Source: Thermoguttaceae bacterium
GTDB lineage: Bacteria; Planctomycetota; Planctomycetia; Pirellulales; Thermoguttaceae
Length of the DNA stretch: 64,000 bases
Reading direction: 5' to 3'
Assembly (NCBI GenBank): GCA_045599605.1
Contig: JAZRWE010000033.1
Location: forward strand, 85,687-149,686
Numbering within the stretch: position 1 is the first letter of the stretch; every line of letters begins with the position of its first letter. Made by a program: the position numbers and the translations under genes. Positions 10,694 to 64,000 of this stretch are shown in pieces. Under the pieces are notes generated by a model, which was not told the DNA's origin, made no database searches, and saw only the letters and a list, made by a program, of their open reading frames with translations.

Positions 10694-13261
10694 ATGAAAA
10701 AGCAAGAAGACGATACGATGAGAACGAAATTGCGAGTCGAACGCGGCGCGGATCCAACGCGTCGTGGGTTTACTTTGCTTGAAATTCTCCTCGTCTTGGT
10801 GTTGATAGTCGTTCTACTTGGCGGTCTTGCTTCGTTAATACGCGTATTCACCAATAGTTATTTCTCAAATGAACGTCGCGTCGGTAGAGCGCAACTTGCG
10901 CGTTCGATATCGCAGATGCTTGAAGACGATCTTGGCGCCGCGATACAGGATCCAATACAAGCGGTCGCCGAAGACGCTAACCGCCAATTTATCCGCCACT
11001 TCGGACTTCGCGGGGACGCGCGGTCGTTACAGATCGACGTCGTGCAACCTAGCCTGTTTGCGAAGACGGCCACCGTCGACGAGAATATCCGCGTTCAATC
11101 CGGCGGGGATAAATCCGCAGCGTCGCGACAAGCGCCGGAATTGAAAACGATCTTCTACGAATTTGTTCCGATCAACGCAAGCGAAGTTATTGAAGGACAA
11201 CAAAATACGACAAACGGAACCGTCGCCGCGCAAGGCGAGGATCTTGGTTCTTCGCTGACCGGCTCGCTTTCCTCGACTTCGCCCGACTCGGCGTTGTCTA
11301 ACGTTAACGGTGACGTTCTCGCCGACTCGTCTTCTTTCCGCGATCCAACGCTTCCGCTCGCGCAGAAATACGGCTTGTCGCGTCGCGAACTCGATTTTGA
11401 GACGCCGGAAGAAGATACGGAAGAAACGGACCAACTAAGCGCGTACGATCTTGGCGCCTCTATCGATCCTGAGACGGGGGCGGCGACCTCGACGTTGAGC
11501 GGTTCGCTGACGTCCGCGCCGACGACTCAGAACTCTACGCTGACGTCGACCGATCCTAGCGTCAACGCCGCGCTCGGTATCGTCGACGCGACGCAATACG
11601 TTTACAAAGAACCGCTTACCGCCGTACAGATCGCGATGGATTCAGACGACGGCACGACGTGGGCGCCGGAAGTGCTCGATTGCCGTTTCAGCTACTTTGA
11701 CGGCGAAAAATGGCGCGATTCGTGGGATAGTATTCAAGATAAAGGACTTCCGATCGCGATCAAGGTCGAATTGAAGATGGCGCCGCTCGACGACGTCGAT
11801 CTCTATCGCAGCGCGCCGATCTTCGCGATGTTGCCCGTAGCGCCCGACCTTGAAACGCTTTCAAAACTAGCGACCGCGGGAGACCAACTTGTCGATACCG
11901 ACGAAGTTAACGTAAGTCGTTTGGCAGGCTCGCTTACTCGTACCGCGAAAGAAAAAGGCGAACCCGTCGACGTGTTCAATTCGTATCGGCCTCTTGCCGC
12001 TATTCGCGCCGCGATGGAAGGCGTGGTCACCAATCGCGACGGCGCTTCGACGTTCGCGGAAGTCGCCGCGTCCGCTATGCTGTTGCGTGCCAATGAGTTA
12101 GAAACGCAAAACGCGAGTTCGCCCGGCGATATGGAAGGCGGTCTGGCGTTCAGTAGCGGACTTGGCGGTTCGCTCAACGGTTCTTCTACGTCGACGGACG
12201 GCGCGTTAGGGGGCGGCTTGACTTCCGGAACCGCTAATACCGCCAACGTCAATACGGGCGACCCGAGTCTGGACCCGTCGATCGCGATCGTGCAGGAAAT
12301 GATGGCGAACGGCGCCGTATTTAACGAGGCGGGTATCTGCGTCGACTTCTCTAACGACGGTTCTTATGTAACGCTCGAACAGATCGCCGAGGAGATCGGC
12401 GTGACGGAACCCAATGTTTACGAAGTGATCGTCTATCTCCCGACGACTCCGCTCAGCCGCGCGACGACGGTCCAACGCCGCGTCGCGACGACGGTGCGCC
12501 AAGGCAATGTCTCGCAACGACGTAATACGAACGCCGCCGGCGGAAATAGTCGCGATCGTCGCGCGCAAGGTCAGAATCCTTACGCCACCGGTAGAGCGCG
12601 ACAATCGCAACCTCGTGAAAGAACGGAACGCACAAGAAACGAGCGCACGGCGCAAGATCGTCAACGCGCGGATCGGCAGACGGCGGAACGCGGACGCGCC
12701 GATCGTCAAGCGGTCGACCGCGGCGGCCCCGTCGAGCGACAAGCAAATAATCGTCAAGTTAACGAACGCCAAGGAGGCGAAGCGCGAACCGCAAATACGC
12801 GCGAAACGCGAGAACGCGTCGGACGCAACGGCGGTTGGACCGACGATAGCCCCAATACGGTCAACTACGGGAATCGTAACGCGAATAATAGAGCGCAAGT
12901 AGGAGATACTAACGGCGTCGGCGGTTTCGGTAACGCCGCCGCGGATCTCGGCGGTCTTGGCGATCGTAACGCGGTAACGCCGTCTCTTGGTCAAGGGGGC
13001 GGGCTCGCGGGCGGACTTGCCGGCAACGGCGGCGCCACGCAGATTCAGACCGATCCGTTTGCTATCGTCGACCAACAGATGAACGCCGCCTCGTCTGCGC
13101 CGTTTGCGTCGCAAAACGCTGATATGGATATTTTTGGCGGAATGACTACGCCGGGGTTGATCGAGACGCCTAACGGAACGAACACGGTCGCTTCTCCGAC
13201 CGCGCCCGCCGCGCCGCAACGCCAAGGTCAGCAACAAACGTGGATCCGCGGTAAGAAATAA
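10694..13261 (+). CDS. GspJ-like minor pseudopilin (prepilin N-terminus) with large S/T/G-rich and Arg/Gln/Glu-rich low-complexity regions
   Basis: The sequence contains RRGFTLLEILLVLVLIVVLLGG followed by a GspJ-like helix region. The protein is 855 aa, far larger than canonical GspJ. An alternative start is at 10718. Confidence 0.5.
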   Translation: MKKQEDDTMRTKLRVERGADPTRRGFTLLEILLVLVLIVVLLGGLASLIRVFTNSYFSNERRVGRAQLARSISQMLEDDLGAAIQDPIQAVAEDANRQFIRHFGLRGDARSLQIDVVQPSLFAKTATVDENIRVQSGGDKSAASRQAPELKTIFYEFVPINASEVIEGQQNTTNGTVAAQGEDLGSSLTGSLSSTSPDSALSNVNGDVLADSSSFRDPTLPLAQKYGLSRRELDFETPEEDTEETDQLSAYDLGASIDPETGAATSTLSGSLTSAPTTQNSTLTSTDPSVNAALGIVDATQYVYKEPLTAVQIAMDSDDGTTWAPEVLDCRFSYFDGEKWRDSWDSIQDKGLPIAIKVELKMAPLDDVDLYRSAPIFAMLPVAPDLETLSKLATAGDQLVDTDEVNVSRLAGSLTRTAKEKGEPVDVFNSYRPLAAIRAAMEGVVTNRDGASTFAEVAASAMLLRANELETQNASSPGDMEGGLAFSSGLGGSLNGSSTSTDGALGGGLTSGTANTANVNTGDPSLDPSIAIVQEMMANGAVFNEAGICVDFSNDGSYVTLEQIAEEIGVTEPNVYEVIVYLPTTPLSRATTVQRRVATTVRQGNVSQRRNTNAAGGNSRDRRAQGQNPYATGRARQSQPRERTERTRNERTAQDRQRADRQTAERGRADRQAVDRGGPVERQANNRQVNERQGGEARTANTRETRERVGRNGGWTDDSPNTVNYGNRNANNRAQVGDTNGVGGFGNAAADLGGLGDRNAVTPSLGQGGGLAGGLAGNGGATQIQTDPFAIVDQQMNAASSAPFASQNADMDIFGGMTTPGLIETPNGTNTVASPTAPAAPQRQGQQQTWIRGKK

Positions 13262-13307: not shown

Positions 13308-15224
13308 ATGGAAAACGACGCTTTAAATACGCAGACTGCCGCGAACGACAACGGCGCCGACTACGACGCCGCGGAACGCGAAGCGAAACGCGTGCGCCGC
13401 GCGATATATAATCTCTTGATATTCGTAGCGTTAGGCGTCGGTTTTGGTAAGATCGCCTCCGTCGATTCCGTTTACGATCGCGCTATTCAGAATTTCCGCT
13501 TGCAACAGATCCCGAAGACGTTGGAAGCTAAGGATAAAGAATTGCAAGACAAAGGCGTCGAACCGGAACGTCGACAAGCGGAATTAGAACGCGTCTACAA
13601 CTCTTTACTAGCCGACGCAAATAAAGCGCGTCCAACGCTTTGCGCTAACGACCGTAGTCGTTGGGCGACGATCCGCGCGCTCGTTGAACCGGATATGCGC
13701 GTCTATCGCTACACGCCTGTGTTCTCCGACGAACAAAAAGCCGATCGTATCTCGGAGCTGTCGATGCGAGAACCGAACAGCGCGAAGAAGATACGCTTTA
13801 AGTTCTACGATAACGAGATCTTACGAAATTGCGCGTCCGATTGCTCCGAACAATTTTCCAAAGAACACGCCGTCGCGAAGCGTTACACGCGAAAGCTAGT
13901 TCCTTACGCCGTCGACAAAGTCTGGGAAACGCCGGGTTGGGATTCTATCGACGTTGTCAAACATGGACTTAAAGACGAAGTTTACGTTCCTGAGAACCCG
14001 TCGTCAGGTTATATCTATTCCAGCAAACCGACCCTATTGCCGACGCTGATGGCGGCCCCGTATTGGGTCTTGTATCATTGCTGCGGATTGTCGCTCTCCA
14101 AAAATCCGTTTGAAGGCGTGAAGATACTACTTGTTTTCTATAACCTTATTCCGTTGGGACTTGCGTTCCTTTGCCTGACGTCGTTAATCGACTCTGTTGG
14201 GAAGACGACGTGGGGGCGGTTGTTCGCGGTCGCAACGCTGCTGTTCGCGTCTTTCGCGTTGACCTTTGTAGCGACGTTAAATAACCATATACCGGGTTTT
14301 GTGGCGATATCGATCTCGCTTTGGGCGGGGATGAAGATCTTACGCGACGGCAAAGATTCATGGATATACTACGCGTTAGCCGGGTTCTTTGGTGCGTTTG
14401 CCGTCGTCTGCGAGTTGCCCGCGCTGGCGTTTGCAGGAACGTTGTTCTTGTGCCTCGTTATAAGTAAAGCCAAGAAAACGCTTGGCGTTTCCGTCCCGTT
14501 TGGACTCGTCGTCGCCGTCGCGTTTGTTTCGACCGACATGATCGCGCATCAATCGCTCAAACCGGCGTATTCTCATAAACGCGATCATATGGCGTTGGCG
14601 GAACAAGCGAAAGCCGCTACGGATGAGACGGCGAAGAACGCCGACGGCGCGCCGTTATTTGAATTCGATCCTAACGACTGGTATTACTACGTTTATTATC
14701 CCGCGGGGAAGACTCGCGAGATGAAGAACGCGCGTATTAGCCACTGGGCTTATCGCACCGGTATCGATCGCGGGGAACCGTCGATCGCGCGTTACGCGTT
14801 CCATTCGACGATCGGCAGTCGCGGGGTATTCTCGCTTGCTCCGGTCTGGATATTCAGTATCTTTGGCGCGATCGCGTTCGCGTTGACAAAAGGAAAGACC
14901 GATCCCGGAAAACGCGCGCTCGGCGTAATGACGCTGGTGTTGACGGTCGTATTTTTTGCGTTCTTCCTGACGCGCGATCAAGGGGACCGCAATTACGGCG
15001 GGGTATGTTGTTACCCGCGTTGGTTCTTCCCGTTGATACCGTTGTTTGCGCCCGCGCTTACGCCGGCCGCCGACGCGTTGTCGAAACGAGCGTTCGGACG
15101 ATGGATCGCGTATTTGGCGTTATTTATCGCGGCGGCTTCCGCGTCCTATCCGACGTGGTCGCCGTGGGTCTCGCCGTGGTTCTATCAATTCGCCGTCGAT
15201 TGGAATTGGATGGAGCCGTATTGA
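13308..15224 (+). CDS. polytopic inner-membrane protein of unknown function (about 230-aa soluble N-terminal domain plus about 10 predicted TM helices)
   Basis: This is a long ORF with many hydrophobic helices. The ATG at 13308 has an SD (GAGGA) 5 nt upstream, whereas the ORF-track start at 13296 is GTG. It lies 35 bp downstream of the pseudopilin genes on the same strand. No recognisable family motif was found. Confidence 0.6.
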   Translation: MENDALNTQTAANDNGADYDAAEREAKRVRRAIYNLLIFVALGVGFGKIASVDSVYDRAIQNFRLQQIPKTLEAKDKELQDKGVEPERRQAELERVYNSLLADANKARPTLCANDRSRWATIRALVEPDMRVYRYTPVFSDEQKADRISELSMREPNSAKKIRFKFYDNEILRNCASDCSEQFSKEHAVAKRYTRKLVPYAVDKVWETPGWDSIDVVKHGLKDEVYVPENPSSGYIYSSKPTLLPTLMAAPYWVLYHCCGLSLSKNPFEGVKILLVFYNLIPLGLAFLCLTSLIDSVGKTTWGRLFAVATLLFASFALTFVATLNNHIPGFVAISISLWAGMKILRDGKDSWIYYALAGFFGAFAVVCELPALAFAGTLFLCLVISKAKKTLGVSVPFGLVVAVAFVSTDMIAHQSLKPAYSHKRDHMALAEQAKAATDETAKNADGAPLFEFDPNDWYYYVYYPAGKTREMKNARISHWAYRTGIDRGEPSIARYAFHSTIGSRGVFSLAPVWIFSIFGAIAFALTKGKTDPGKRALGVMTLVLTVVFFAFFLTRDQGDRNYGGVCCYPRWFFPLIPLFAPALTPAADALSKRAFGRWIAYLALFIAAASASYPTWSPWVSPWFYQFAVDWNWMEPY

Positions 15225-15246
15225 TTTCTTAAAATAATGGTATAAT
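15215..15246 (+). promoter_or_regulatory. possible extended -10 promoter (TGGTATAAT at 15238-15246) upstream of smpB
   Basis: A TGnTATAAT element sits 78 bp upstream of the smpB ATG. Only a weak -35 (TTGATT with a short spacer) is present. Confidence 0.3.
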
Positions 15247-15323
15247 AAAAGAAGCAGACGGCGCGACGCCGTACCGGGTCGAGCGATCCGAGACAATAGA
15301 TACAAATATAGAAGAAAGTCCCC

Positions 15324-46271: not shown

Positions 46272-47117
46272 ATGATCGAAAAAGACGTTGAAGTATCCGA
46301 TTACGTGTCGCCGTCGAAGTTGTGCAATTACACGATCAATCCGTATGTCGGTTGTCCGCATGCTTGTCGGTACTGTTACGCGTCGTTTATGAAGCGTTTC
46401 ACGGAACATGAAGAACCTTGGGGGGAGTTCCTTGACGTCAAGCGTTGTTCTAAGCCGTTAGGCGCGAAGCGATTGACGGGCAAGACCGTCTTTATGTCGT
46501 CGGTCACGGATTGTTATAATCCTTGGGAGGCGAAGTACGGAATAACGCGTAGGATCTTGGAGGAGTTGGCGCCGATCGAATGCGAGCTGTCGATCACGAC
46601 GAAGTCCGATCTCTTGTTGCGCGACCTCGATCTGCTGAAAGCGCGAACGGAGTTGTTTCGACGTCCTAAGACATTATTTGACTTTGCCGAGCCCGACGAG
46701 CGTTGCGGGATACGCGTTCTCGCGTCGGTCAACACGCTCGACGAAGGATTCAGAACGGATATGGATCGCGCTTCCCCGATCGCGAAGCGGTTGGAGATGT
46801 TGAAGGTCTGTCACGCGGCGGGTATTCCGACGCTGTTGTTCATGTCGCCGATATTTCCGCATATCACCGACTTTCGCGCGATCGTCGACGCCGCGGCTTC
46901 TTATGTCGACGCGTTTTGGTTCGAGAACCTGAATCTTCGCCCTGATTTTGAAGACGCGATATTGTTTTATATTCGCGAACGTTATCCGCAATATTTTGAA
47001 ACGTATCTCGATATTTATCGTCGCGGCGATCTGTCGTATTGGCGCGCGCTAAAAGAAGAGATCAAAGAGTATTGCGAACATAAAGGCGTCGCGTTTCAAT
47101 TATGTTTTCACTATTGA
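46272..47117 (+). CDS. radical SAM protein, SPL (spore-photoproduct-lyase-like / DNA repair photolyase COG1533) family
   Basis: The N-terminal INPYVGCPHACRYCYASF contains the C-x3-C-x2-C radical SAM cluster motif in the exact context typical of the SPL family. Confidence 0.75.
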   Translation: MIEKDVEVSDYVSPSKLCNYTINPYVGCPHACRYCYASFMKRFTEHEEPWGEFLDVKRCSKPLGAKRLTGKTVFMSSVTDCYNPWEAKYGITRRILEELAPIECELSITTKSDLLLRDLDLLKARTELFRRPKTLFDFAEPDERCGIRVLASVNTLDEGFRTDMDRASPIAKRLEMLKVCHAAGIPTLLFMSPIFPHITDFRAIVDAAASYVDAFWFENLNLRPDFEDAILFYIRERYPQYFETYLDIYRRGDLSYWRALKEEIKEYCEHKGVAFQLCFHY

Positions 47118-51904: not shown

Positions 51905-54900
51905 TCACGGTTCCGTTCGCGCGTTTCTGAAACCCGGTCTATCGGCTTCGGGGCGTTTGTCGGCGAGGGCTTTTCCTTTAAGTATAGCGTTGTACAGCGC
52001 TTGCCATTGCGCGTCGTCTTTTGACTCGAACACGAGCGCGGGCGAATCTTCCGGCGCGTTCTTATCGGTGGAGAGTCCGCGTCCGCCTGCGGCTTTGGCT
52101 AAGTGCGCGTTGAGTAGCGCGCTCTTTTCAGGTCGCGTGAGGTCGATCCAGCCGAAACGTCCTATCCAGTCGGTGTTCGGACCTTCAAAGACTTCGGAAC
52201 GATCGCGATTTTCGCCCGTAAGACGTTTATGGCAGTCCGCGCATTTCTCGGCGTAGATCGGCGCGAGTTCTTTACTGAACCAGTCTGCGAGTCCGGCTTT
52301 ATCGAGCGGCGCCCAGCGGTCGCGTCTGCCCGCGGATAGCGGCCGCGCGTTGGCGTAGGTCCCTTGATAGATCGCGTTAGAATCGAGCCAGAAATAGACG
52401 CGGCGCAGCGAGACGTCGTCGACTTCTTGACCGCAATGCTCTTTCGTGAAATATTCAGGCAAACGACTAGCGAGCGCGCCCGTCGTGTACGGCATATTGA
52501 CCGCGGAAGTCGTCCATAACAGCCAATAGAATTGCACTAACGGCTTGCCGAGCGCTTGTTGGTCTTCCGGCATTTCCCCGGTAAGCATATCCGCTTGACG
52601 ATACGAACGACTCTTTAATAACAACGATTCGTAACTTGCGCTGAAATAACGAGTAGCGTCGCCGCTGAGATCGTATCCGCCCGTCGGGTCGGCGCCGTCG
52701 TGACAGGAAACGCAGTAGCGATCCAGTACCGGTTGCATCAGCGACGGATAATCGACTACGCCGGCGTCGAGCGAGAGATTGCCGTCGTGCGATTGGCGGT
52801 ATTCGTACGCGTCGTAGATAAAATCAGGCAATACGGGCATATCGGGACTACGCAGCGCGGCGGTCGGGCGACGGCTCTCGTCTTGCGCGGTCGCGGGTAT
52901 CGAGTCGCGATCTTCGTGACAGCCGACGCAGCCGATCGATTCTCCGGGCATGAATTGCGCGGCGCTCGTCATGCGCTGTATCTCGCGTCCTTCCGCGTCT
53001 AGCGCTTGGAAATAGATCTCGCGCAACGCCGGGACGTAGAAATTCGCGCTGCCGTCTTCGTCGACCGGGACTTCGCCCCAGCAACGCTTGGCGTAATACG
53101 TCGCCACGCCCATCGACGGCGATTGGTCGAACGAACGGTCATACAGTTCTTCCGATTTGCGTATCTGTTCCATAATGCGCAGCTTCTTGACTTCGCCGCG
53201 CTTCACGATCGGTTCGAGCCCTTGATAGACGTCCGCGAGAACGACCTGTCCGACGGGGTCGCCTTCAAGCAGATCCATGCGTTCGGGGATCCCCCATTCG
53301 CCGACGGCAACGGCGGCGCCGTCGATCTCGCATTGCGATTCGTGCGAGACGTTATAGTATTCCGCGAGCTTGGAGTACTCGTTGCACGCTTCTACGCCGT
53401 CAGTCTTGCGCAAGCCGCTAAATACTTCCGCGGGTTTGAGTTCCGGACGGAGTTTCGCTTTCATGTCTTTCTCGACGATACGCGTAGGCAGCACGGGCGG
53501 TCGCGGCGTCTCTTCCACCGCGATCGGGCAAAACGCGTCGAATTCCGGGTCTTCCCAGAGGAGTCGCTTCTCGCCGTCGCAGTCGAGCAACCAGATGCGA
53601 TAGCGTTGCGTTTCCGCGTCGTTTTCGTCGATACGCGTCGCGCCGCCGTAAGCGCATAACGCGCGTTCCTCGTCTAGCGGGAACGGGTCGCGATACGCGT
53701 AGTCTCGCGAGACGTCCACGACCGTCGGGAACTCTTTCGTCCAGTACTTGTAGCCGCCCTTATCCGCGCCGGCTTCCACCCCCATCGCGCGGTCTACGAC
53801 GCCGATCGCGCCGTGAGGATAGCCATGGTGAGGCGTGAAGGTCGCAAGGACTCGCGACGACGGCGCGCCGGGAATAGGACGCGCTTGTAGGATCGAACCG
53901 AAGTCGCGCAACGTGTTGCCGTAATAGAGTTGGTAGAGCGTTCCCTCGGGATTCTGCGTCCATAGCGATTGTCGGTACGTCAGGTCGCGGTCGACGTATT
54001 CCCAACGCGTGAAGATAACGCGTCCGTCCGCAAGGACTTGCGGGTTAAAATCGGAGAGCGTGTTCATACTGACGCATTGGATATCGTCGCCGTTCTTGTC
54101 CATGCGGAAGAGGTTAGAGGCGGGACCGGGTTGACAAACGGTGCGTCCGAAACGTCGCGAGGAGACGAAGACGATACCGCCGTCGGGTAATTCCGCGGGC
54201 GAAACGTCGAAGAACGGGCCGTTGGTCAGTTGTCTTAACCCTTTACCGTCGACGCCGACGCTCCAGATGTTCCAGTAGGAGTTGTTCTTAGGGCGGTACG
54301 AGAAGTAGACGGTCTTCGCGTCGTACGACAAGTTCATATCGTATATCGAGCCGTCGGGGTCTTCAAATATCGTCTTGACTTCCGCGGTCGGGTCGGCGGG
54401 ATCGACCATGCGTATCGCGCAACCCGGCGTTTGCGGCGTCGCTTGCCAGAAGTCGTTGCCAACGGAATTAGGACGTCCGCGCATCGCTCTCGCGACGTAG
54501 ATGAACGGCGGTAAGTCGTCCGTAGCTAGCGTTTCCGGATAATCGCTCGACTCTTCTTCCGGCTTAACTAAGTCGACGGCGGTGAAGGGCGCGTCGACGA
54601 AACCGTCGGTCGTGGCGTCAAGACGAACGCGGAGATCGCGATACTCGACGTCGTTTTGCCAAGAACGGAACGTGAATGTGCCCGCGCGTAATGGATCGGT
54701 CGCTTTCAGTTCCGCCTCGTGGTATTCGCCTTTATAAACGCCGTCGAGATAGAACGCGAATCCTGTTTCGTCGAACTCGACGCGTAACGTGAAGTATTCG
54801 CCGACGGGCACGTCGTACGGCACGCGCGTTATCGCGGTATAGTTTTGGCGATGCGCGCCGACATTGACGTGTTTCTCGGCGGGATTGAATCCCAACTCGT

Positions 54901-55267
54901 AGCCGTTGAACGCGTCGGCGCCGATCCCGGAACCGCTTATCTTGAAACATATCCCGGAGTACCCCGGCGTCGCGGCGTTGAAACGCAGGTCTACTTCGAT
55001 CGCGCCGCGCGTCGCGTTAGCCCATTCCTGCGCGTCGTAAGTCAGTCGCGAGCCGGAATCGCCCTTGCATAAGAGAACGCCGTCGTTAAGCGTCCAAGAA
55101 CCGCCGTACGCCTCGAAACCTTCCAACGGTCTTGCGGGGCCGCTCGGCGTAAACGGCATAGCGAGTATGCGTTCAAGTCGAGTAGATTCCGCGGCTTGTA
55201 ACATAGCGCTCGGCGAAGCGACGAAGACGAGAACGAGTAATATATAGCGTAGGCGTTTCAAGTTCAT
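51905..55267 (-). CDS. large secreted multidomain protein: N-terminal LamG/DUF1080-like domain, central TolB-like beta-propeller region, and a C-terminal region with three CxxCH heme-binding motifs (Planctomycete cytochrome-c-domain-like)
   Basis: A signal peptide is present (ILLVLVFVASPSAMLQAAE). The N-terminal domain ends with the DUF1080-like FTFRSWQNDVEYRDLRV. The CxxCH motifs are CVGCHED, CVSCHDG and CADCHKR. The length is 1120 aa. Confidence 0.75.
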   Translation of the reverse strand: MNLKRLRYILLVLVFVASPSAMLQAAESTRLERILAMPFTPSGPARPLEGFEAYGGSWTLNDGVLLCKGDSGSRLTYDAQEWANATRGAIEVDLRFNAATPGYSGICFKISGSGIGADAFNGYELGFNPAEKHVNVGAHRQNYTAITRVPYDVPVGEYFTLRVEFDETGFAFYLDGVYKGEYHEAELKATDPLRAGTFTFRSWQNDVEYRDLRVRLDATTDGFVDAPFTAVDLVKPEEESSDYPETLATDDLPPFIYVARAMRGRPNSVGNDFWQATPQTPGCAIRMVDPADPTAEVKTIFEDPDGSIYDMNLSYDAKTVYFSYRPKNNSYWNIWSVGVDGKGLRQLTNGPFFDVSPAELPDGGIVFVSSRRFGRTVCQPGPASNLFRMDKNGDDIQCVSMNTLSDFNPQVLADGRVIFTRWEYVDRDLTYRQSLWTQNPEGTLYQLYYGNTLRDFGSILQARPIPGAPSSRVLATFTPHHGYPHGAIGVVDRAMGVEAGADKGGYKYWTKEFPTVVDVSRDYAYRDPFPLDEERALCAYGGATRIDENDAETQRYRIWLLDCDGEKRLLWEDPEFDAFCPIAVEETPRPPVLPTRIVEKDMKAKLRPELKPAEVFSGLRKTDGVEACNEYSKLAEYYNVSHESQCEIDGAAVAVGEWGIPERMDLLEGDPVGQVVLADVYQGLEPIVKRGEVKKLRIMEQIRKSEELYDRSFDQSPSMGVATYYAKRCWGEVPVDEDGSANFYVPALREIYFQALDAEGREIQRMTSAAQFMPGESIGCVGCHEDRDSIPATAQDESRRPTAALRSPDMPVLPDFIYDAYEYRQSHDGNLSLDAGVVDYPSLMQPVLDRYCVSCHDGADPTGGYDLSGDATRYFSASYESLLLKSRSYRQADMLTGEMPEDQQALGKPLVQFYWLLWTTSAVNMPYTTGALASRLPEYFTKEHCGQEVDDVSLRRVYFWLDSNAIYQGTYANARPLSAGRRDRWAPLDKAGLADWFSKELAPIYAEKCADCHKRLTGENRDRSEVFEGPNTDWIGRFGWIDLTRPEKSALLNAHLAKAAGGRGLSTDKNAPEDSPALVFESKDDAQWQALYNAILKGKALADKRPEADRPGFRNARTEP

Positions 55268-60089: not shown

Positions 60090-60518
60090 GCAAGACAAGA
60101 CGAAATGAAGAACGTTGGCTCGCCGAGGGTTCCGCATAACGTGTCGAGTTCTCGTGAAGAGTAGGGCGCGACGAAGAAACGCCGCCGTCTATGCGTCTAA
60201 GAACGTTGGTAAAGAAACGCGTAATTCAGCCGCAAGAAACAAAAAATCGGCGCGGTATCAAATGAAACGCACGCCGATTTTCAGAATACTATATATTGCT
60301 TATCTGGACTCTCTCGTAACAAAGAAGACGCGGAAGCGTCGTCTTTGTTCGATATTACGCCAAAATGGGTAAACACCCTAATAAGACGCTAATTCTCAAA
60401 GAATCAGCGTAACGATCAACGTATCGTTCGACGCTCGCATAAAGCGAGGATTGAGGCGCGACAGGACTAGGTCCTATCGCACGTGTGAAAGCGAAGGCGC
60501 GAGCTAACGCGCAACGAC

Positions 60519-60695
60519 TCATTCTTCGTCGGCGTCGTCTTGGTCGATATCACGACCGGGGTCGTATTCAGGACGAAGGAGAGCGGACTTGTCTTTATCA
60601 AGTTCTTGGTAGTCGTTGACGTTTTCTTTGGCTTCGAAAGACAAAACGGTGCAGACGGGCGCGGCGTACTTTTCGCGGTTGGCAAATTTCATCAT
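60519..60695 (-). CDS. small acidic protein (58 aa) of unknown function; candidate substrate peptide of the adjacent RRE/kinase/nucleotidyltransferase/peptidase operon
   Basis: The ORF encodes MMKFANREKYAAPVCTVLSFEAKENVNDYQELDKDKSALLRPEYDPGRDIDQDDADEE. An SD (AAAGGA) lies 6 nt upstream of the first ATG (60695). Upstream of it is a 275-bp AT-rich region, and a hairpin lies downstream at 60494-60510. Confidence 0.4.
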   Translation of the reverse strand: MMKFANREKYAAPVCTVLSFEAKENVNDYQELDKDKSALLRPEYDPGRDIDQDDADEE

Positions 60696-60991
60696 AGTGT
60701 TCCTTTTTATAAGCAATATTGTCGACGTAACAGCAAAAGCTGATCCCCACGTCGGCTGTTAAGGAGAAAGTCTCCTGTAATAGCCAAGCCTATTTCTCAA
60801 GACTATACGCCTTTGTATTGTATTATCTTTTTGGATAATGGCAAGGGCGCAGAAAGACTTTTTATAGAGTTTTGTTTTTTCTTTTTTTAGAATACAGTAA
60901 ACAGTTTACGATTATGTGATTTCTGTAATATATTGATTTTGGGTAATTTGTTAATGTGTTGATAAAATACGGCGTCTAGGAAATGTTTTTG

Positions 60992-61534
60992 TTATCTTTT
61001 AACTCTCGGAATAGGCGCTTTTTTACCGAATACGCTTCTTTTTATAGCCCCGAGTTTACGCCGAAAGAACTTCAGAGTTCGTTTTATCATCCGCCGCGTT
61101 TCCCTTTGCGCGTATAGTATTCGCGAATAGAGTTTGTAAGCGCGTGAACGTTCGCAATCTATGCGTAGCTTACCGCGTTCGATCGCGTAGACCTTGGCGT
61201 AGATATCTTCTTTATTTACCGGCGGTTCCGGATTCACGAACGCGTCGCCGCGAAAGATAGCGTCGCCGTTCTTTAATACGGCGACGACGCGATGGAGGTT
61301 GTATTTGCCGTTGGCGGCGCGATAGAGCGCGATATCGTATTTCTCGATCTTGTCGCATAAGCCAAGATAGACGACGTCTTTACGGTCGCGCAACGTCGGC
61401 TTCATACTTGTTCCGCCGGGACAAAACGCGACGCGCTTCTCCTTATCGCCGTCGAGCGTTTCTAGCAATAGCTTGAAATACTCTTCTGCGGGAAGCGTTA
61501 GATTCTCGCGTTCTTCGGCGTTATGGGCGTTCAT
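60992..61534 (-). CDS. soluble S26/S24-family signal-peptidase-like serine protease (SMxPTL catalytic-Ser motif; Ser/His-type)
   Basis: The segment VAFCPGGTSMKPTLRDRKDVVYL matches the signal peptidase I box B (G-x-S-M-x-P-T-L). Downstream, YNLHRVVAVLKNGDAIFRGD resembles box D (KRVIGLPGD), with His in place of the catalytic Lys as in ER/archaeal/SipW-type enzymes. No TM segment is present. A 4-bp ATGA overlap links it to the upstream PqqD-like gene. Confidence 0.6.
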   Translation of the reverse strand: MNAHNAEERENLTLPAEEYFKLLLETLDGDKEKRVAFCPGGTSMKPTLRDRKDVVYLGLCDKIEKYDIALYRAANGKYNLHRVVAVLKNGDAIFRGDAFVNPEPPVNKEDIYAKVYAIERGKLRIDCERSRAYKLYSRILYAQRETRRMIKRTLKFFRRKLGAIKRSVFGKKAPIPRVKR

Positions 61535-61797
61535 TCGCTCAGCGCTCCATTTTCACGCAGCTGAGTCAGGAACGTTTCGACGTCGCGCGCGGCGGTATCG
61601 TTATCGATCTCAAAGCGTTCGACGACGGCTTCGACGATAGCTTCCGCCGTCGTTTCTTCTTGCAGTTTCTCCGCGATGAACGCGCCGACTTTATTGAGCG
61701 TCAGCATTCCGTTGAATTTGATCATCTTCTTACCAAACGGCACGAGGACGGCGGAATCGACGACGCGGCGAAGTACGAAATCTGAACTGAGTTTCAC
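61531..61797 (-). CDS. PqqD-family protein (RiPP precursor recognition element, lasso B1-like)
   Basis: The 88-aa protein reads VLRRVVDSAVLVPFGKKMIKFNGMLTLNKVGAFIAEKL...AEAIVEAVVERFEID...AARDVETFLTQLRENGAL, which is the PqqD/RRE pattern (beta-strands followed by a winged helix-turn-helix). A GTG start has an SD. Confidence 0.75.
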   Translation of the reverse strand: MKLSSDFVLRRVVDSAVLVPFGKKMIKFNGMLTLNKVGAFIAEKLQEETTAEAIVEAVVERFEIDNDTAARDVETFLTQLRENGALSE

Positions 61798-61832
61798 GTT
61801 GCTGCCTTATTGATCGAAGTGTGAAGTTGGAG

Positions 61833-62546
61833 TTATTGGACGTTAGGAAAACGCATAGCGCGATAAGACGCTTGCGCGGCGTTTGGCGTGTTTGTGCAGC
61901 CGACGCGGTAGACGGGCACGGTCGTCAAGAGGTCGACGATCAGATCGAGCGCCTGTTCTAAAACGCGATGCTTCAACGGCGACATCGATTGCTTCATGAA
62001 TAGCCCGATCGCTTCGTCGGCGCCGATACGCGCGACGCTATCGACTTTGGCGCGTTCCAGGAAGCCTATGCCTTGTAACGGTACTTGTTTATTGACGTTG
62101 ATGAACGTCGAACCAGCCCACGGCGTACCGCAAGCGCGCCAGACGCCGTCGAATTTCCTGAGCGCCGGAGCGTCGTCGTTCAAAATATACGCGCCGTTTG
62201 CGCCGAAGTTTTGTAGCCAGTACCGCGTGTGCGTCGATTTGCCTACCCCGCTGTCCGCGGAGAAAAGATACGCGCGATCCTCGTAAACTACCGACGAGGA
62301 ATGGAGCACAAGCGTTCCGAAGCGCGTCGACTCGCGGTGGAATAGGTAACGCATGAACGCGTATTCCGCAAAATCCGGTTCGTTGCCGCTATACTTCAAC
62401 GCGTAGGCGATATCGTCGTCGGTCACCTTGAAGACGACGTCGGGCGCGAGACTGTCGTCGACTCGATACGGTTCCGCCTGTTTCAGCGATAATTCGTATC
62501 GCGCGTCGAACGCGACGGTTATGCCCGCCACTTGGTAATTGCGCAT
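61833..62546 (-). CDS. HPr kinase/phosphorylase C-terminal-domain-like P-loop serine kinase (lasso-peptide-kinase-like)
   Basis: The segment LHSSSVVYEDRAYLFSADSGVGKSTHTRYWLQNFGANGAYILNDDAP matches the HprK core (LHG..V..G.GVL..G.SG.GKSE....L...G..LV.DD). An ATGA start/stop overlap links it to the upstream gene. Confidence 0.75.
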   Translation of the reverse strand: MRNYQVAGITVAFDARYELSLKQAEPYRVDDSLAPDVVFKVTDDDIAYALKYSGNEPDFAEYAFMRYLFHRESTRFGTLVLHSSSVVYEDRAYLFSADSGVGKSTHTRYWLQNFGANGAYILNDDAPALRKFDGVWRACGTPWAGSTFINVNKQVPLQGIGFLERAKVDSVARIGADEAIGLFMKQSMSPLKHRVLEQALDLIVDLLTTVPVYRVGCTNTPNAAQASYRAMRFPNVQ

Positions 62547-63808
62547 CAGTCGTCTTCCTTCCAGTCTTGGGCGTTGAATCGGCTAGGATCTAACCCCGCG
62601 CGACGTTGGAACGCCGCCGCCGCGGAGACTTGCTTCTCGTTCGCGCTTAGGAACGTGCGGAGATTGCGATAGAAGTTCTTGCGCGTCAGGCGCGTATGCC
62701 AGAACTTAAAGAACAACTTCGTCGCGACCCAGGGCTTTTTCCACGTCGGGACGCCGCGCAGACGATGCACGACCTCGTAATTGACGCGTTGCGGGAAGAT
62801 CGTTAATAGATGCCGTATGCGCGCGAAACGTTTTTTCTTCCCGTCCGTCGCGGAACTCGCGAGATACGAGGAGTAACAGCAGACGGCGCCTTCTTCGTCG
62901 GAAGTCGCGTTCGTCTCGTGACGGAAGAACTGGTAGAGCGTCATCTCCGTCAATACCGCGTCGAGCGGCTTGTGTCCAAACCAAGCGTCGACAAGACGTT
63001 CGATATTTTTTTCGAATTCAAGCGTTCCCGCGGAGTCGAGATCCGCGTCGAGCTTCTTGCGATCGAGAGTCGCGCCGCGAGCGCGGAGATAGAGCGCGAC
63101 GTCGAGATAGTCGCGCAACGCCGTTTGGCTCTGGATCCAGTGCTTGAGTAGGTGTTCCAGCATATAGCGATAGAAGTCTTCGTCGGTGAAGCGGTATTCC
63201 GTCGACTCATACGCGACGAGCCGTTTCCACGAGACGCTTCTCCCGCGCTCGAACGCCCCGGAAGCGTTGAAGAGCTTGTAGTGCTGTTCGACCATGAATC
63301 GTCCGGCTTTGAGGAAGACGTCGTGATGCTCGTCTCCTTTGACGTATTCGTAGCCTTGGCGTTCAAGCGCTTCTCGCGCTTTATCAAAATCCTCCGGCCG
63401 AACTAACACGTCGTAGTCGGACATCGTCCTCAGATACGCTTCCGGATAAAGGTCTCTCATCAAGAACCCTTTGAGCGGCATATAGCAGACTCCGGCGTCG
63501 CGAAACGCTTGATTCAGCGCGTTGAATTCTTGTGTTTGCAGCGCTTCGTCTTCGACGGCGGCGTTGAGCGTGGAACCGCATTTCGCCAAGATCGCCGGGG
63601 TCGACGCGTTAGGCGCCGACAGCGAGACATACGCAAGCAGCGGCGCGACTTTTTGACGTTTCGCAAGTTGCGTCAACGCCTCTACGTCGAGTTCGTCGGG
63701 GGGATCGGGCGCCGCCTCGTTATTGAAAAACGCCGCCAACACGTCCAAGAGGTATCGCTCTTCGACGCGTAACGACGCGGAGCCGTATTGTTCGGTGACT
63801 TGCGGCAT
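62546..63808 (-). CDS. uncharacterised nucleotidyltransferase family protein (PF14907-like), first gene of the operon
   Basis: The 420-aa protein contains CYMPLKGFLMRDLYPEAYLRTMSDYDVLVRPEDFDKAREALERQGYEY, the GS/hG[SG]...D.D signature region of this nucleotidyltransferase family. A perfect SD (AAGGAG) lies 7 nt before the ATG, with an intergenic region of at least 190 bp upstream. Confidence 0.65.
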   Translation of the reverse strand: MPQVTEQYGSASLRVEERYLLDVLAAFFNNEAAPDPPDELDVEALTQLAKRQKVAPLLAYVSLSAPNASTPAILAKCGSTLNAAVEDEALQTQEFNALNQAFRDAGVCYMPLKGFLMRDLYPEAYLRTMSDYDVLVRPEDFDKAREALERQGYEYVKGDEHHDVFLKAGRFMVEQHYKLFNASGAFERGRSVSWKRLVAYESTEYRFTDEDFYRYMLEHLLKHWIQSQTALRDYLDVALYLRARGATLDRKKLDADLDSAGTLEFEKNIERLVDAWFGHKPLDAVLTEMTLYQFFRHETNATSDEEGAVCCYSSYLASSATDGKKKRFARIRHLLTIFPQRVNYEVVHRLRGVPTWKKPWVATKLFFKFWHTRLTRKNFYRNLRTFLSANEKQVSAAAAFQRRAGLDPSRFNAQDWKEDD

Positions 63809-64000
63809 AGGATCTCCTTAGGTTAGTCTTGCGCTACTCGGTAATTTTAACAATACGCATAAGAAAGTCAACGCGCAACCGGCCCCGAAACGTTGGCGTT
63901 TGGACCGCGATTTACGGCGTCGCGACTTCGGCTAATCGTTGACGTCGAAACGCTTCTTCGCTATAATCAACGCGATAACGCGCGGGTAGGGCTTGCGCGG

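Follow-up and report, generated by a model that had tools for sequence, protein, structure and literature searches.

The last 4 kb of the window, by which we mean the whole 64,000-nucleotide stretch of DNA that was analysed, hold a 3.3-kb operon (60519-63808) whose product is most likely a linear peptide, phosphorylated and exported. Its four cassette genes all lie on the minus strand, where each is present as the open reading frame given for it in the preliminary description, and they follow one another in the order nucleotidyltransferase, kinase, PqqD protein, peptidase (N-K-B-S). The lppN-like gene (62546-63808) encodes a protein of 420 aa with a PF14907 (NTP_transf_5) match, the lppK-like gene (61833-62546) a P-loop kinase of 237 aa with the HprK/P fold and of the ScmC family, the lppB-like gene (61531-61797, GTG start) a discrete PqqD-type RiPP recognition element (RRE) of 88 aa, and the lppS-like gene (60992-61534) a predicted soluble Ser-His leader peptidase of 180 aa, of the SipW/Sec11 type (S26B-like). 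Further downstream on the same strand lies a putative precursor ORF of 58 aa, lppA-like, with an AAGGA Shine-Dalgarno (SD) sequence (60519-60695).

The first gene starts with an ATG at 63808, and AAGGAG stands 6 nt 5′ of it, the perfect SD that had been reported there; the gap between the kinase and PqqD genes, read from the sequence, is 35 nt, also as reported. ATGA overlaps had been claimed at the other two junctions. The PqqD and peptidase genes do overlap by a 4-nt ATGA (61531-61534), while the transferase and kinase genes share 1 nt at 62546, in a TGATG. The promoter scan was one of consensus matching only, by which Planctomycete promoters are poorly covered. It places a promoter-like site, TTGACT-16-TAAAAT with a TG, on the minus strand 5′ of the operon's first gene (63844-63871), another, TTGACG-17-TATAAT (11/12), on the plus strand, facing out toward a divergent exporter gene (63939-63967), and two more in an AT-rich spacer (GC ~0.40; 60817-60954, minus strand) 5′ of the precursor ORF. 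Seven nt past the precursor stop there is a terminator-like hairpin (60497-60512, minus strand), a weak candidate because the regional hairpin count is not above the shuffle expectation.

Judged from contig L005, which is 98.4% identical to the window end, the divergent gene is an LppD-like ABC exporter gene that would start ~36 bp past position 64000. In L005 it encodes an ABC_membrane/ABC_tran exporter, 63% identical to the exporter of a second locus, L001, and such a divergent ABC exporter is found in two Planctomycete clades. The downstream neighbour of the cassette is an RND pump.

Enzymes of the cassette

Linear polyphosphorylated peptides (LPP) were defined in Bacilli by Popov et al. 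(Nat Commun 2026;17:6633, PMC13381572, 20 May 2026), with a gene set of a precursor (LppA), an HprK-like kinase (LppK), a discrete RRE (LppB), a SipW-type leader peptidase (LppS), an MsbA-like exporter (LppD) and a PF14907 transferase (LppN). The core set is given there as SpI + RRE + HprK + NTP_transf_5 + MsbA, without a lasso cyclase, and the reference cluster is lppA-K-B-S-D-N of Paenibacillus alginolyticus DSM5050. The functions of kinase, RRE and peptidase have been proven experimentally, and LppN was inactive even in the published system (PMC13381572), a point that weighs against an LPP assignment of the window cluster.

In the window, the transferase matches PF14907 over residues 39-278 (E=6.4e-47, Pfam profile search), with a further ~140 aa C-terminal to the match, and its gene has the same position in the Planctomycete loci L001, L004 and L005; NTP_transf_5 is listed as a core LPP domain (PMC13381572 table). 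The kinase has no match in the same Pfam search. It matches TIGR04249 ScmC (E=3.4e-7), the model that LPP kinases also match (PMC13381572 table), and its homologues carry PF27840 ScmC. Its AF2 model (pLDDT 94.4) has HprK/P of L. casei (1kkm, E=7e-5) as the best PDB match, and on this fold the P-loop, His and Asp-Asp motifs are intact, the invariant residues being H82, S84, G100-x-GKST105, N123-D-D125 and GTP142. We liken the kinase to LppK through the shared TIGR04249 model and the HprK/P fold.

The PqqD protein matches PF05402 (E=2.3e-18) as well as lasso_PqqD models. Its PDB matches are TbiB1 (0.0025), TfuB1 (0.0047), LppB (9x8z_B, 0.0053) and PbaB1 (0.11), and the HMM of its family scores LppB at 35-44 bits and PbaB1 at 34.5 bits. 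On these scores the window RRE stands about as near to LppB as to TbiB1 and TfuB1, and nearer than to PbaB1; that LppB does not stand out among the lasso B1s counts against an LPP assignment, as does the classing of the RRE of one Ruminococcus relative under 'RRE others' and not as an LPP RRE (PMC13381572).

The peptidase, again without a match in the Pfam profile search, weakly matches signal peptidase I (E=0.003). When it was tested for S26B, TIGR02227 (17.5 bits) and the SipW model (12.6 bits) stayed below their cut-offs of 47 and 190, and the cut-off of TIGR02228 was missed too. Its AF2 model (pLDDT 92.5) has a LexA/signal-peptidase fold, with matches to LexA, lambda cI, SpsB and SipA. In the model, residues 16-27 form an N-terminal helix and residues 131-169 a long basic helix at the C-terminus, with a beta core between the two, and hydropathy gives no transmembrane segment (max KD19 = 0.68). 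Ser43, His81, Arg82, Gly96, Asp97 and Glu103 are invariant across the family alignments. The HMM of the peptidase family matches LppS of P. alginolyticus (WP_029196374.1) over its full length with 80.9 bits, and in this alignment S43, H81 and E103 fall on the proven catalytic residues S29, H68 and D93. The homology includes the N-terminal helix, which in LppS contacts the RRE-leader sheet, although identity to the LppS proteins of Bacilli is only 23-30% and a Glu stands where LppS has Asp93 as its third catalytic residue. With SipW and Sec11, the Bacillus subtilis and eukaryotic S26B enzymes, it has in common the GxSMxP, HR and GD boxes and Ser-His instead of Ser-Lys catalysis. Unlike them, it has no membrane anchor, and by analogy with LppS it would act in the cytoplasm on a RiPP leader, in dependence on the RRE, whereas their substrate is a Sec signal peptide.

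Profile searches had been named as the check on these assignments, and Pfam supports those of PF14907 and PqqD; the kinase and the peptidase are assigned by other models and by fold.

Comparison with published LPP clusters

We read the locus as an LPP-type RiPP gene cluster in a Thermoguttaceae-like Planctomycete, and we give this reading a probability of about 80%. Common to the window and P. alginolyticus are a YxxP precursor (putative in the window), an HprK-like/ScmC-type kinase, a discrete PqqD RRE, a soluble archaeal-type (SipW-like) peptidase and a PF14907 transferase, and neither P. alginolyticus nor the window at 40-64 kb has a macrolactam cyclase. The MsbA-like exporter would have its counterpart in the gene that L005 predicts past the window end. 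The LPP features found in the window extend to the Ser/His/acid triad of the SpI-type peptidase, whose gene overlaps that of the RRE by 4 nt, beside the HprK-like kinase and PF14907 and with neither cyclase nor B2 at 40-64 kb. The differences lie in the gene order, with N-K-B-S in one direction, the exporter gene divergent and the precursor gene downstream with its own promoter region; in the phylum, Planctomycetota instead of Bacillota; in the leader, which is without the HQxIxFET box; in the core, which is acidic whereas that of P. alginolyticus is basic (pI 10) and Gly/Asn-rich; and in the surroundings, since no capsule locus surrounds the window cluster and no lasso cluster adjoins it.

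SynChlorMet (ScmC/ScmD; TIGR04249/TIGR04248) and HPr-rel-A (TIGR04352/TIGR04353) likewise comprise a PqqD-family chaperone and, as its partner, an HprK-related kinase. The models of these systems match the window proteins weakly, with scores far below the curated cut-offs, and the cassette differs in having a peptidase and PF14907 and no radical SAM/SPASM maturases.

The preliminary description had called the system possibly undescribed, which no longer holds, since the same gene set has been published as LPP (PMC13381572); that family is only months old, and the window cluster opens no new mechanism class. What is new here is the Planctomycete host, of Thermoguttaceae type and from a phylum without an earlier LPP report, together with a divergent sub-family. 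The functional reading proposed at that time, an RRE that presents a peptide to a kinase, a nucleotidyltransferase and a signal-peptidase-like protease, has fared better and is essentially supported.

In the published pathway, LppK phosphorylates Ser3 of the core and does not accept Thr or Tyr, and leader cleavage by LppS (S29/H68/D93) requires LppB (PMC13381572). It is from this system that we infer RRE-dependent cleavage, phosphorylation, the order of the steps and export for the window cluster. The 58-aa peptide would be translated from its own transcription unit, and the PqqD-type RRE would bind its N-terminal Y-x-x-P leader as a beta-strand. The RRE-peptide complex would recruit the HprK-like kinase, so that a core residue is phosphorylated with ATP, and also the soluble SipW-type peptidase, whose Ser43/His81/Glu103 would remove the leader around residues 25-29. 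The phosphate may receive a further group from the PF14907 transferase, and the divergent ABC exporter just outside the window would export the product, which would stay linear because no macrolactam is made.

Precursor peptide and product chemistry

The precursor is composed of a leader, MMKFANREK-Y-AA-P-VCTVLSF, and an acidic core (pI ~4) ending in DIDQDDADEE, and it is the sole ORF of the window matched by the peptide HMM (E=2.4e-16). A search among 11,067 small ORFs gave YxxP-leader peptides with E-values of 1e-9 to 1e-20; in 17 loci these lie 61-2152 bp from the kinase gene, most of them within ~1.1 kb. Homologous peptides adjoin homologous cassettes in L001-L004 and in 10 loci of Clostridia, and for this reason no better substrate candidate exists than the acidic small ORF, in line with its original nomination. 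Bacilli LppA scores at most 8 bits with the peptide HMM, and of the published leader consensus YxxPxVLxHQxIxFETxxS the window peptide has only the YxxP part (relatives also have MKKxY), which weighs against the LPP reading.

At the presumed leader/core junction the window has E-N-V-N-D-Y and its relatives E-D-V-h-T-x-S. The Thr/Ser pair of this junction (T-x-S) is found in the Clostridial and L001 relatives, and in its place stand N-D-Y in the window, again a point against the LPP reading, and N-G-A in L004. In the window peptide, Ser is absent from core positions 2 and 3 and from the expected phospho-position, and the distal Ser37 is the only Ser of the predicted core. Perhaps, then, the same machinery carries out a different chemistry, with the kinase and transferase modifying another position or residue type (Ser37, Tyr or the E/D-x-N/D-x-G motif) and the peptides forming a class distinct from LPP proper. 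The acidity of the cores (pI ~4, against pI 10 in P. alginolyticus) would fit this, as would the Gly-containing motif (E/D-x-N/D-x-G) near the peptide C-terminus, which is conserved across Clostridia and Planctomycetes. However, the catalytic motifs of the kinase are of the HprK-like Ser kinase type, LppK accepts neither Thr nor Tyr (PMC13381572), and most relatives do have a Ser two residues past the conserved Thr, near the published T(-1)/S(+3) layout, and we consider such a departure from LPP chemistry unlikely.

Distribution and neighbourhood

The nucleotidyltransferase-kinase-PqqD-peptidase order is kept in independent Planctomycete contigs at 44-75% protein identity, and a K-D-P(-ABC)(-NT) cassette (K the kinase, D the PqqD protein, P the peptidase) is recurrent in many gut and rumen Clostridia MAGs. 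Recurrence of an S26-like peptidase beside the kinase, which had been proposed beforehand as a test, was observed at 22 of the 51 well-flanked loci, and kinase-peptidase fusion proteins exist as well (P0063, L056). Members of the peptidase family abound in metagenomes of gut and rumen, with 3,599 protein clusters at 90% identity. Many of the surveyed kinase genes adjoin an RRE alone or nothing recognisable, which counts against the LPP reading; with kinase genes often lacking the full set beside them, a complete LPP pathway may not operate wherever the module occurs.

These Clostridial loci with only K or K+D would also suit a decayed, non-functional locus, or a set of enzymes whose substrate is a protein, for instance one of the cell envelope or capsule; the small ORF would then be incidental. 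Clostridial cassettes often adjoin Wzz/CpsD, CpsB, LCP and SLH genes, and the published family occurs in capsule loci too (PMC13381572). In the window, however, there are no capsule genes among the neighbours, no catalytic residue has been lost, the genes are tightly coupled and have good SDs, and the small ORF is conserved as protein across loci although, over the cassette and peptide region, window and L004 DNA give no blastn alignment. Decay or a protein substrate thus seems very improbable to us.

The window cluster, read as LPP-type, belongs to a large clade of gut and rumen Clostridia that is not treated as LPP in PMC13381572. The leader of this clade is MKKxYxxPExhxxFxxEDVhTxS instead of the YxxPxVLxHQxIxFETxxS of Bacilli, its cores are acidic instead of basic, and its third catalytic peptidase residue is Glu instead of Asp. 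Tentatively, and with more doubt than confidence, we suggest that it is a separate and very abundant LPP-like sister class, which has its centre in uncultured Clostridia of gut and rumen and reached gut-associated Thermoguttaceae by a single transfer, with its own leader code (YxxPEhxhxxFxxEDVhTxS), acidic E/D-x-N/D-x-G cores and a modification site relocated or different in the Planctomycete branch. If so, the product would be chemically distinct from the LPPs of Bacilli, and the description of LPP as "restricted to the Bacillota" (PMC13381572) would be wrong. On the LPP-type reading itself, the machinery is not confined to Bacillota but is present in Planctomycetes too, and a RiPP cassette has apparently been transferred between Clostridia and Planctomycetes of the gut. 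The operon, self-contained in 3.3 kb, with its very different acidic precursor and as a natural variant without the canonical acceptor Ser, would make a compact system in which to test substrate recognition by the kinase and by the PF14907 transferase, an enigmatic enzyme.

The paeninodin and pseudomycoidin lasso clusters of Firmicutes, as described by Zhu et al. 2016 and Zyubko et al. 2019 (as cited in PMC7533575 and PMC13381572), are alike in having an HprK-like kinase that phosphorylates a precursor Ser, as the window kinase would by analogy, a PF14907 transferase (PsmN) and an ABC exporter, and a discrete B1 RRE for a [Y/W]xxP leader. In these accounts they differ in their Asn-synthase-like cyclase and transglutaminase-like B2, in place of which the window has a Ser-His signal-peptidase homologue as putative leader peptidase, and in the leader, typically with Trp in paeninodin and with Tyr in the window. 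It is extremely unlikely that the window cuts through an ordinary paeninodin-type cluster and leaves its cyclase and B2 outside: an HprK-like kinase, PF14907 and a PqqD B1 typically accompany Firmicute lasso clusters as accessory genes and one third of published LPP clusters adjoin lasso clusters (PMC13381572), but the dedicated Ser-His peptidase takes the place of B2, the RND pump lies on the downstream side and, past 64000, where a cyclase and B2 would have meant a lasso cluster, L005 points to the divergent ABC exporter instead. The absence of both genes, as first described, was upheld among ORFs of at least 150 aa at 40-60 kb of the window, and Asn_synthase and Transglut_core3 were not found at 40-64 kb, nor within 10 kb of the cassette in L001 and L004. 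Over the next 8 kb upstream, L001 encodes an FAD/CCG oxidase, a B12-binding protein and UvrB, and the upstream gene of L004 encodes an 868-aa repeat protein.

Gene order and surroundings of the cassette

All four minus-strand genes named in the preliminary description are present as open reading frames: a PF14907 transferase gene (62546-63808), an HprK-like kinase gene (61833-62546), a PqqD gene with a GTG start (61531-61797) and a peptidase gene (60992-61534), with a 58-aa precursor-like ORF on the same strand (60519-60695) preceded by an AAGGA Shine-Dalgarno sequence. Read from the sequence, AAGGAG lies 6 nt 5′ of the transferase ATG. ATGA overlaps had been proposed at two junctions; the one between PqqD and peptidase is a true ATGA, while stop and start of the transferase and kinase genes share a 1-nt TGATG overlap. 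The GTG start of PqqD follows a 35-nt gap after the kinase gene, and an AT-rich spacer of 275 bp (GC ~0.40) separates the peptidase stop from the 58-aa ORF. A short GC-rich palindrome, GACGCGGAAGCGTC (60327-60340), is found between the precursor ORF and the gene for the RND pump; T-runs follow it on both strands, and it looks like a bidirectional terminator. An Rfam scan of 59.8-64 kb in the window gave zero matches.

The region beyond the window was read from contig L005, which was reached via kinase homologue P0005 (99% identical to the window kinase) and is 98.4% identical to the window end. Its next gene encodes a divergent exporter with ABC_membrane and ABC_tran domains and begins about 36 bp after position 64000; a divergent ABC exporter is also found in L001. 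The order transferase-kinase-PqqD-peptidase is kept in L001-L003, from a Thermoguttaceae MAG, and in L004, at protein identities of 44-75%, and the Planctomycete contig L018 has the order kinase-peptidase-PqqD, with no transferase or exporter next to it. Neither an Asn-synthase-like cyclase nor a transglutaminase-like B2 protein was found within 10 kb in these Planctomycete contigs (L001-L003, L004, L018).

The closest named homologues are from Thermoguttaceae, Planctomycetota, and the window contains the DUF1598 family (PF07643), which was defined on Rhodopirellula proteins. Between 40 and 60 kb the window encodes tRNA synthetases, a radical SAM protein, an HZS-alpha-domain protein and an RND pump. 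The radical SAM protein (281 aa; 46272-47117, plus strand) lies 14 kb from the cassette and was rejected as a partner, since prolyl- and alanyl-tRNA synthetase genes and the RND efflux system lie between and related loci do not keep it together with the cassette. The HZS-alpha protein (about 1,120 aa; 51905-55267, minus strand) combines 3-keto-disaccharide hydrolase, HZS-alpha middle and cytochrome c domains, and several Planctomycete contigs have it in synteny with the cassette region (L004:11351-14722, L001:17472-20738); the protein is unrelated to the cassette finding and may be usable as a taxonomic marker. A defence-system reading of the locus was dropped because the PADLOC defence models gave zero matches.

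The four proteins and their LPP counterparts

A comparable gene set has been described by Popov et al. (Nat Commun 2026;17:6633; PMC13381572), who defined the linear polyphosphorylated peptides (LPP). Their clusters encode a signal peptidase I of the archaeal type (LppS), a stand-alone RRE (LppB), a kinase resembling HprK (LppK), an NTP_transf_5 protein (LppN) and an MsbA-like pump (LppD), and two thirds of them lack lasso genes. In that system the core Ser3 is poly-phosphorylated by LppK, LppS (S29/H68/D93) cuts the leader after Thr-1 in a reaction that requires LppB, and no activity was seen for LppN; the function of LPP is given as unknown, and the system is stated to be restricted to Bacillota (PMC13381572). 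Sequences for comparison were taken from Supplementary Data 1 of that paper.

The domain calls of the preliminary description were right for all four proteins. The transferase matches PF14907/NTP_transf_5 at E=6e-47 in a Pfam profile search, and an exact-sequence look-up of this protein returned no record. The third gene encodes a PqqD domain (E=2e-18) whose lower-ranking matches are to lasso-type PqqD chaperone models (Pfam, NCBIfam), and PDB sequence search and HMM scoring place this RRE about as near to the lasso B1 proteins as to LppB. The kinase has no match in the local Pfam copy and matches TIGR04249 (ScmC, an HprK relative) at 3e-7; the newer family PF27840 'ScmC' is present in all kinase homologues. 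An alignment of 32 kinases shows invariant His82/Ser84, a GxGKST P-loop and N-D-D and G-T-P motifs. In the fold search with the AF2 model (pLDDT 94.4), L. casei HprK/P is the top solved structure (E=7e-5) and PEP carboxykinases, which share its fold, come next; searched against the PDB by sequence, the kinase profile gave generic P-loop matches only, so that HprK/P is visible only by fold search.

The peptidase has no Pfam match and a marginal one to the signal peptidase I model (E=0.003). Against the PDB, the single sequence found nothing and the family profile found marginal signal-peptidase-I matches only. Across family alignments of 41-46 sequences, G41, S43, M44, P46, H81, R82, G96, D97 and E103 are invariant, and these residues form the GxSMxP, HR and GD boxes of ER/archaeal-type (SipW/Sec11) signal peptidases. 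The AF2 model (pLDDT 92.5) has the LexA/lambda-cI/SpsB/SipA fold, and the protein has no hydrophobic segment. The family comprises 3,599 clusters in the protein database, under the NCBI name 'S24/S26 family peptidase'. Its HMM matches LppS over the full length at 80.9 bits, with S43/H81/E103 aligned to S29/H68/D93, and scores 151 bits with a Ruminococcus protein from the minor SSN cluster 9 of PMC13381572, a cluster whose neighbouring RRE is classed as 'other' by the authors, who gave no precursor for it. A LexA-like autoprotease or regulator was rejected on the lack of an HTH, on a general base that is His and not Lys, and on the full-length homology to LppS.

The candidate precursor and a proposed pathway

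The 58-aa ORF is the only member of its peptide family that the peptide HMM finds in the whole window. Relatives adjoin the cassette in ten Clostridia loci, in L004 and in L001-L003, where they lie on the opposite strand; a search over 11,067 small ORFs gave them E-values of 1e-9 to 1e-20, and the earlier proposal of this ORF as a candidate substrate gains from finding its family beside homologous cassettes. NCBIfam and Pfam gave nothing on the small peptides but one chance-level thiopeptide match. The Clostridial consensus is MKKxY-x-x-P-E-h-x-h-x-x-F-x-h-E-D-V-h-T-x-S, followed across the family by a variable acidic core and a C-terminus that is acidic or aromatic. The Planctomycete peptides retain Y-x-A-P-x-C-x-V-x-S-F, and at the position of T-x-S in other peptides the window peptide has N-D-Y and the L004 peptide N-G-A. 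All three Planctomycete leaders have a Cys two residues past the YxxP proline, and a core motif (E/D)-x-(N/D)-x-G is conserved near the C-terminus (EYDPG in the window, EYNIG, EVNVG, EADGG and others). In L001 the precursor ORF (11708-11866) points the opposite way to the operon, with a DDE transposase (13889-15274) 2 kb beyond it, which suggests a local rearrangement.

The published LPP leader is YxxPxVLxHQxIxFETxxS (PMC13381572), and MKKxYxAP is the only part that the peptide HMM shares with Bacilli LppA. The window locus lacks one defining feature of LPP sensu stricto, the leader consensus with acceptor Ser, and its core has a pI of ~4 as against pI 10 in the P. alginolyticus LPP. In a neighbour-joining tree without support values, Bacilli LppS is sister to a Clostridia and Planctomycete clade, within which the Planctomycete peptidases are monophyletic; this nesting suggests a single transfer of the cassette from gut Clostridia to Planctomycetes. 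Since the leader with its acceptor Ser differs, the clade is a sister one and the phylum is new, we regard the locus as a variant of a system type that is already known. The earlier functional interpretation holds for the most part, and its description as possibly undescribed falls with the publication of LPP (PMC13381572).

Judging from its fold and from the YxxP motif, the RRE would bind the YxxP leader. By homology and by analogy with LPP, the kinase would then phosphorylate a core Ser, Ser37 being the sole one available, the Ser43/His81/Glu103 peptidase would cut off the leader around residues 25-29, the transferase may modify the phosphate, and the divergent ABC pump would export the linear product.

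Kinase loci across genomes

Protein-database clusters of the kinase family number more than 400, and most come from uncultured Clostridia of gut and rumen. Eighty genome loci, mainly Clostridia, were taken from the listed matches of a genome-contig scan and searched with iterated HMMs, and partners were counted in the 51 non-redundant loci with adequate flanks. Among these listed matches the kinase has a PqqD gene beside it in 36/51 loci, a peptidase in 22/51, an ABC exporter in 20/51 and a PF14907 transferase in 10/51, so that S26-like peptidases do recur beside it; the commonest order is kinase-PqqD-peptidase-ABC exporter, in some cases followed by the transferase. No cyclase-like family recurs among the neighbours in the listed loci. 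Within 5 kb, 12 of the 51 listed loci have kinase and PqqD only and 10 have the kinase alone, and for this reason the kinase/RRE pair may have its partners encoded elsewhere, or serve another pathway.

Two independent fusions join an N-terminal ScmC/HprK-like kinase to a C-terminal SipW-like peptidase in a single polypeptide (P0063 at L009:10001-11140, also in L010; and L056:7992-9131). The L009 fusion gene is solitary, with DNA polymerase III alpha on one side and PRPP synthetase on the other, and has no RRE, exporter or recognisable precursor nearby.

Recurrent neighbours in the survey are Wzz/CpsD, CpsB, LCP and SLH proteins. Clostridial cassettes often adjoin such envelope or capsule genes, with Wzz and a CpsD-like tyrosine kinase in at least 15 loci, together with CpsB phosphatase, LytR-CpsA-Psr and SLH proteins (for example L073:10681-12249, L021:5498-6256, L082:8680-9810 and L090:5332-6948). 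An association with capsule loci is likewise reported for Bacilli LPP. The window locus is without such neighbours. In some Clostridia the genes 5′ of the kinase encode proteins with signal- or lipoprotein-type N-termini; those at L007:9493-9990 and L011:9262-9999 are very G/S/N/D-rich and of low complexity, L011:7959-9056 encodes a secreted protein with repeats, and the L011 genes adjoin a 42-aa precursor-like ORF.
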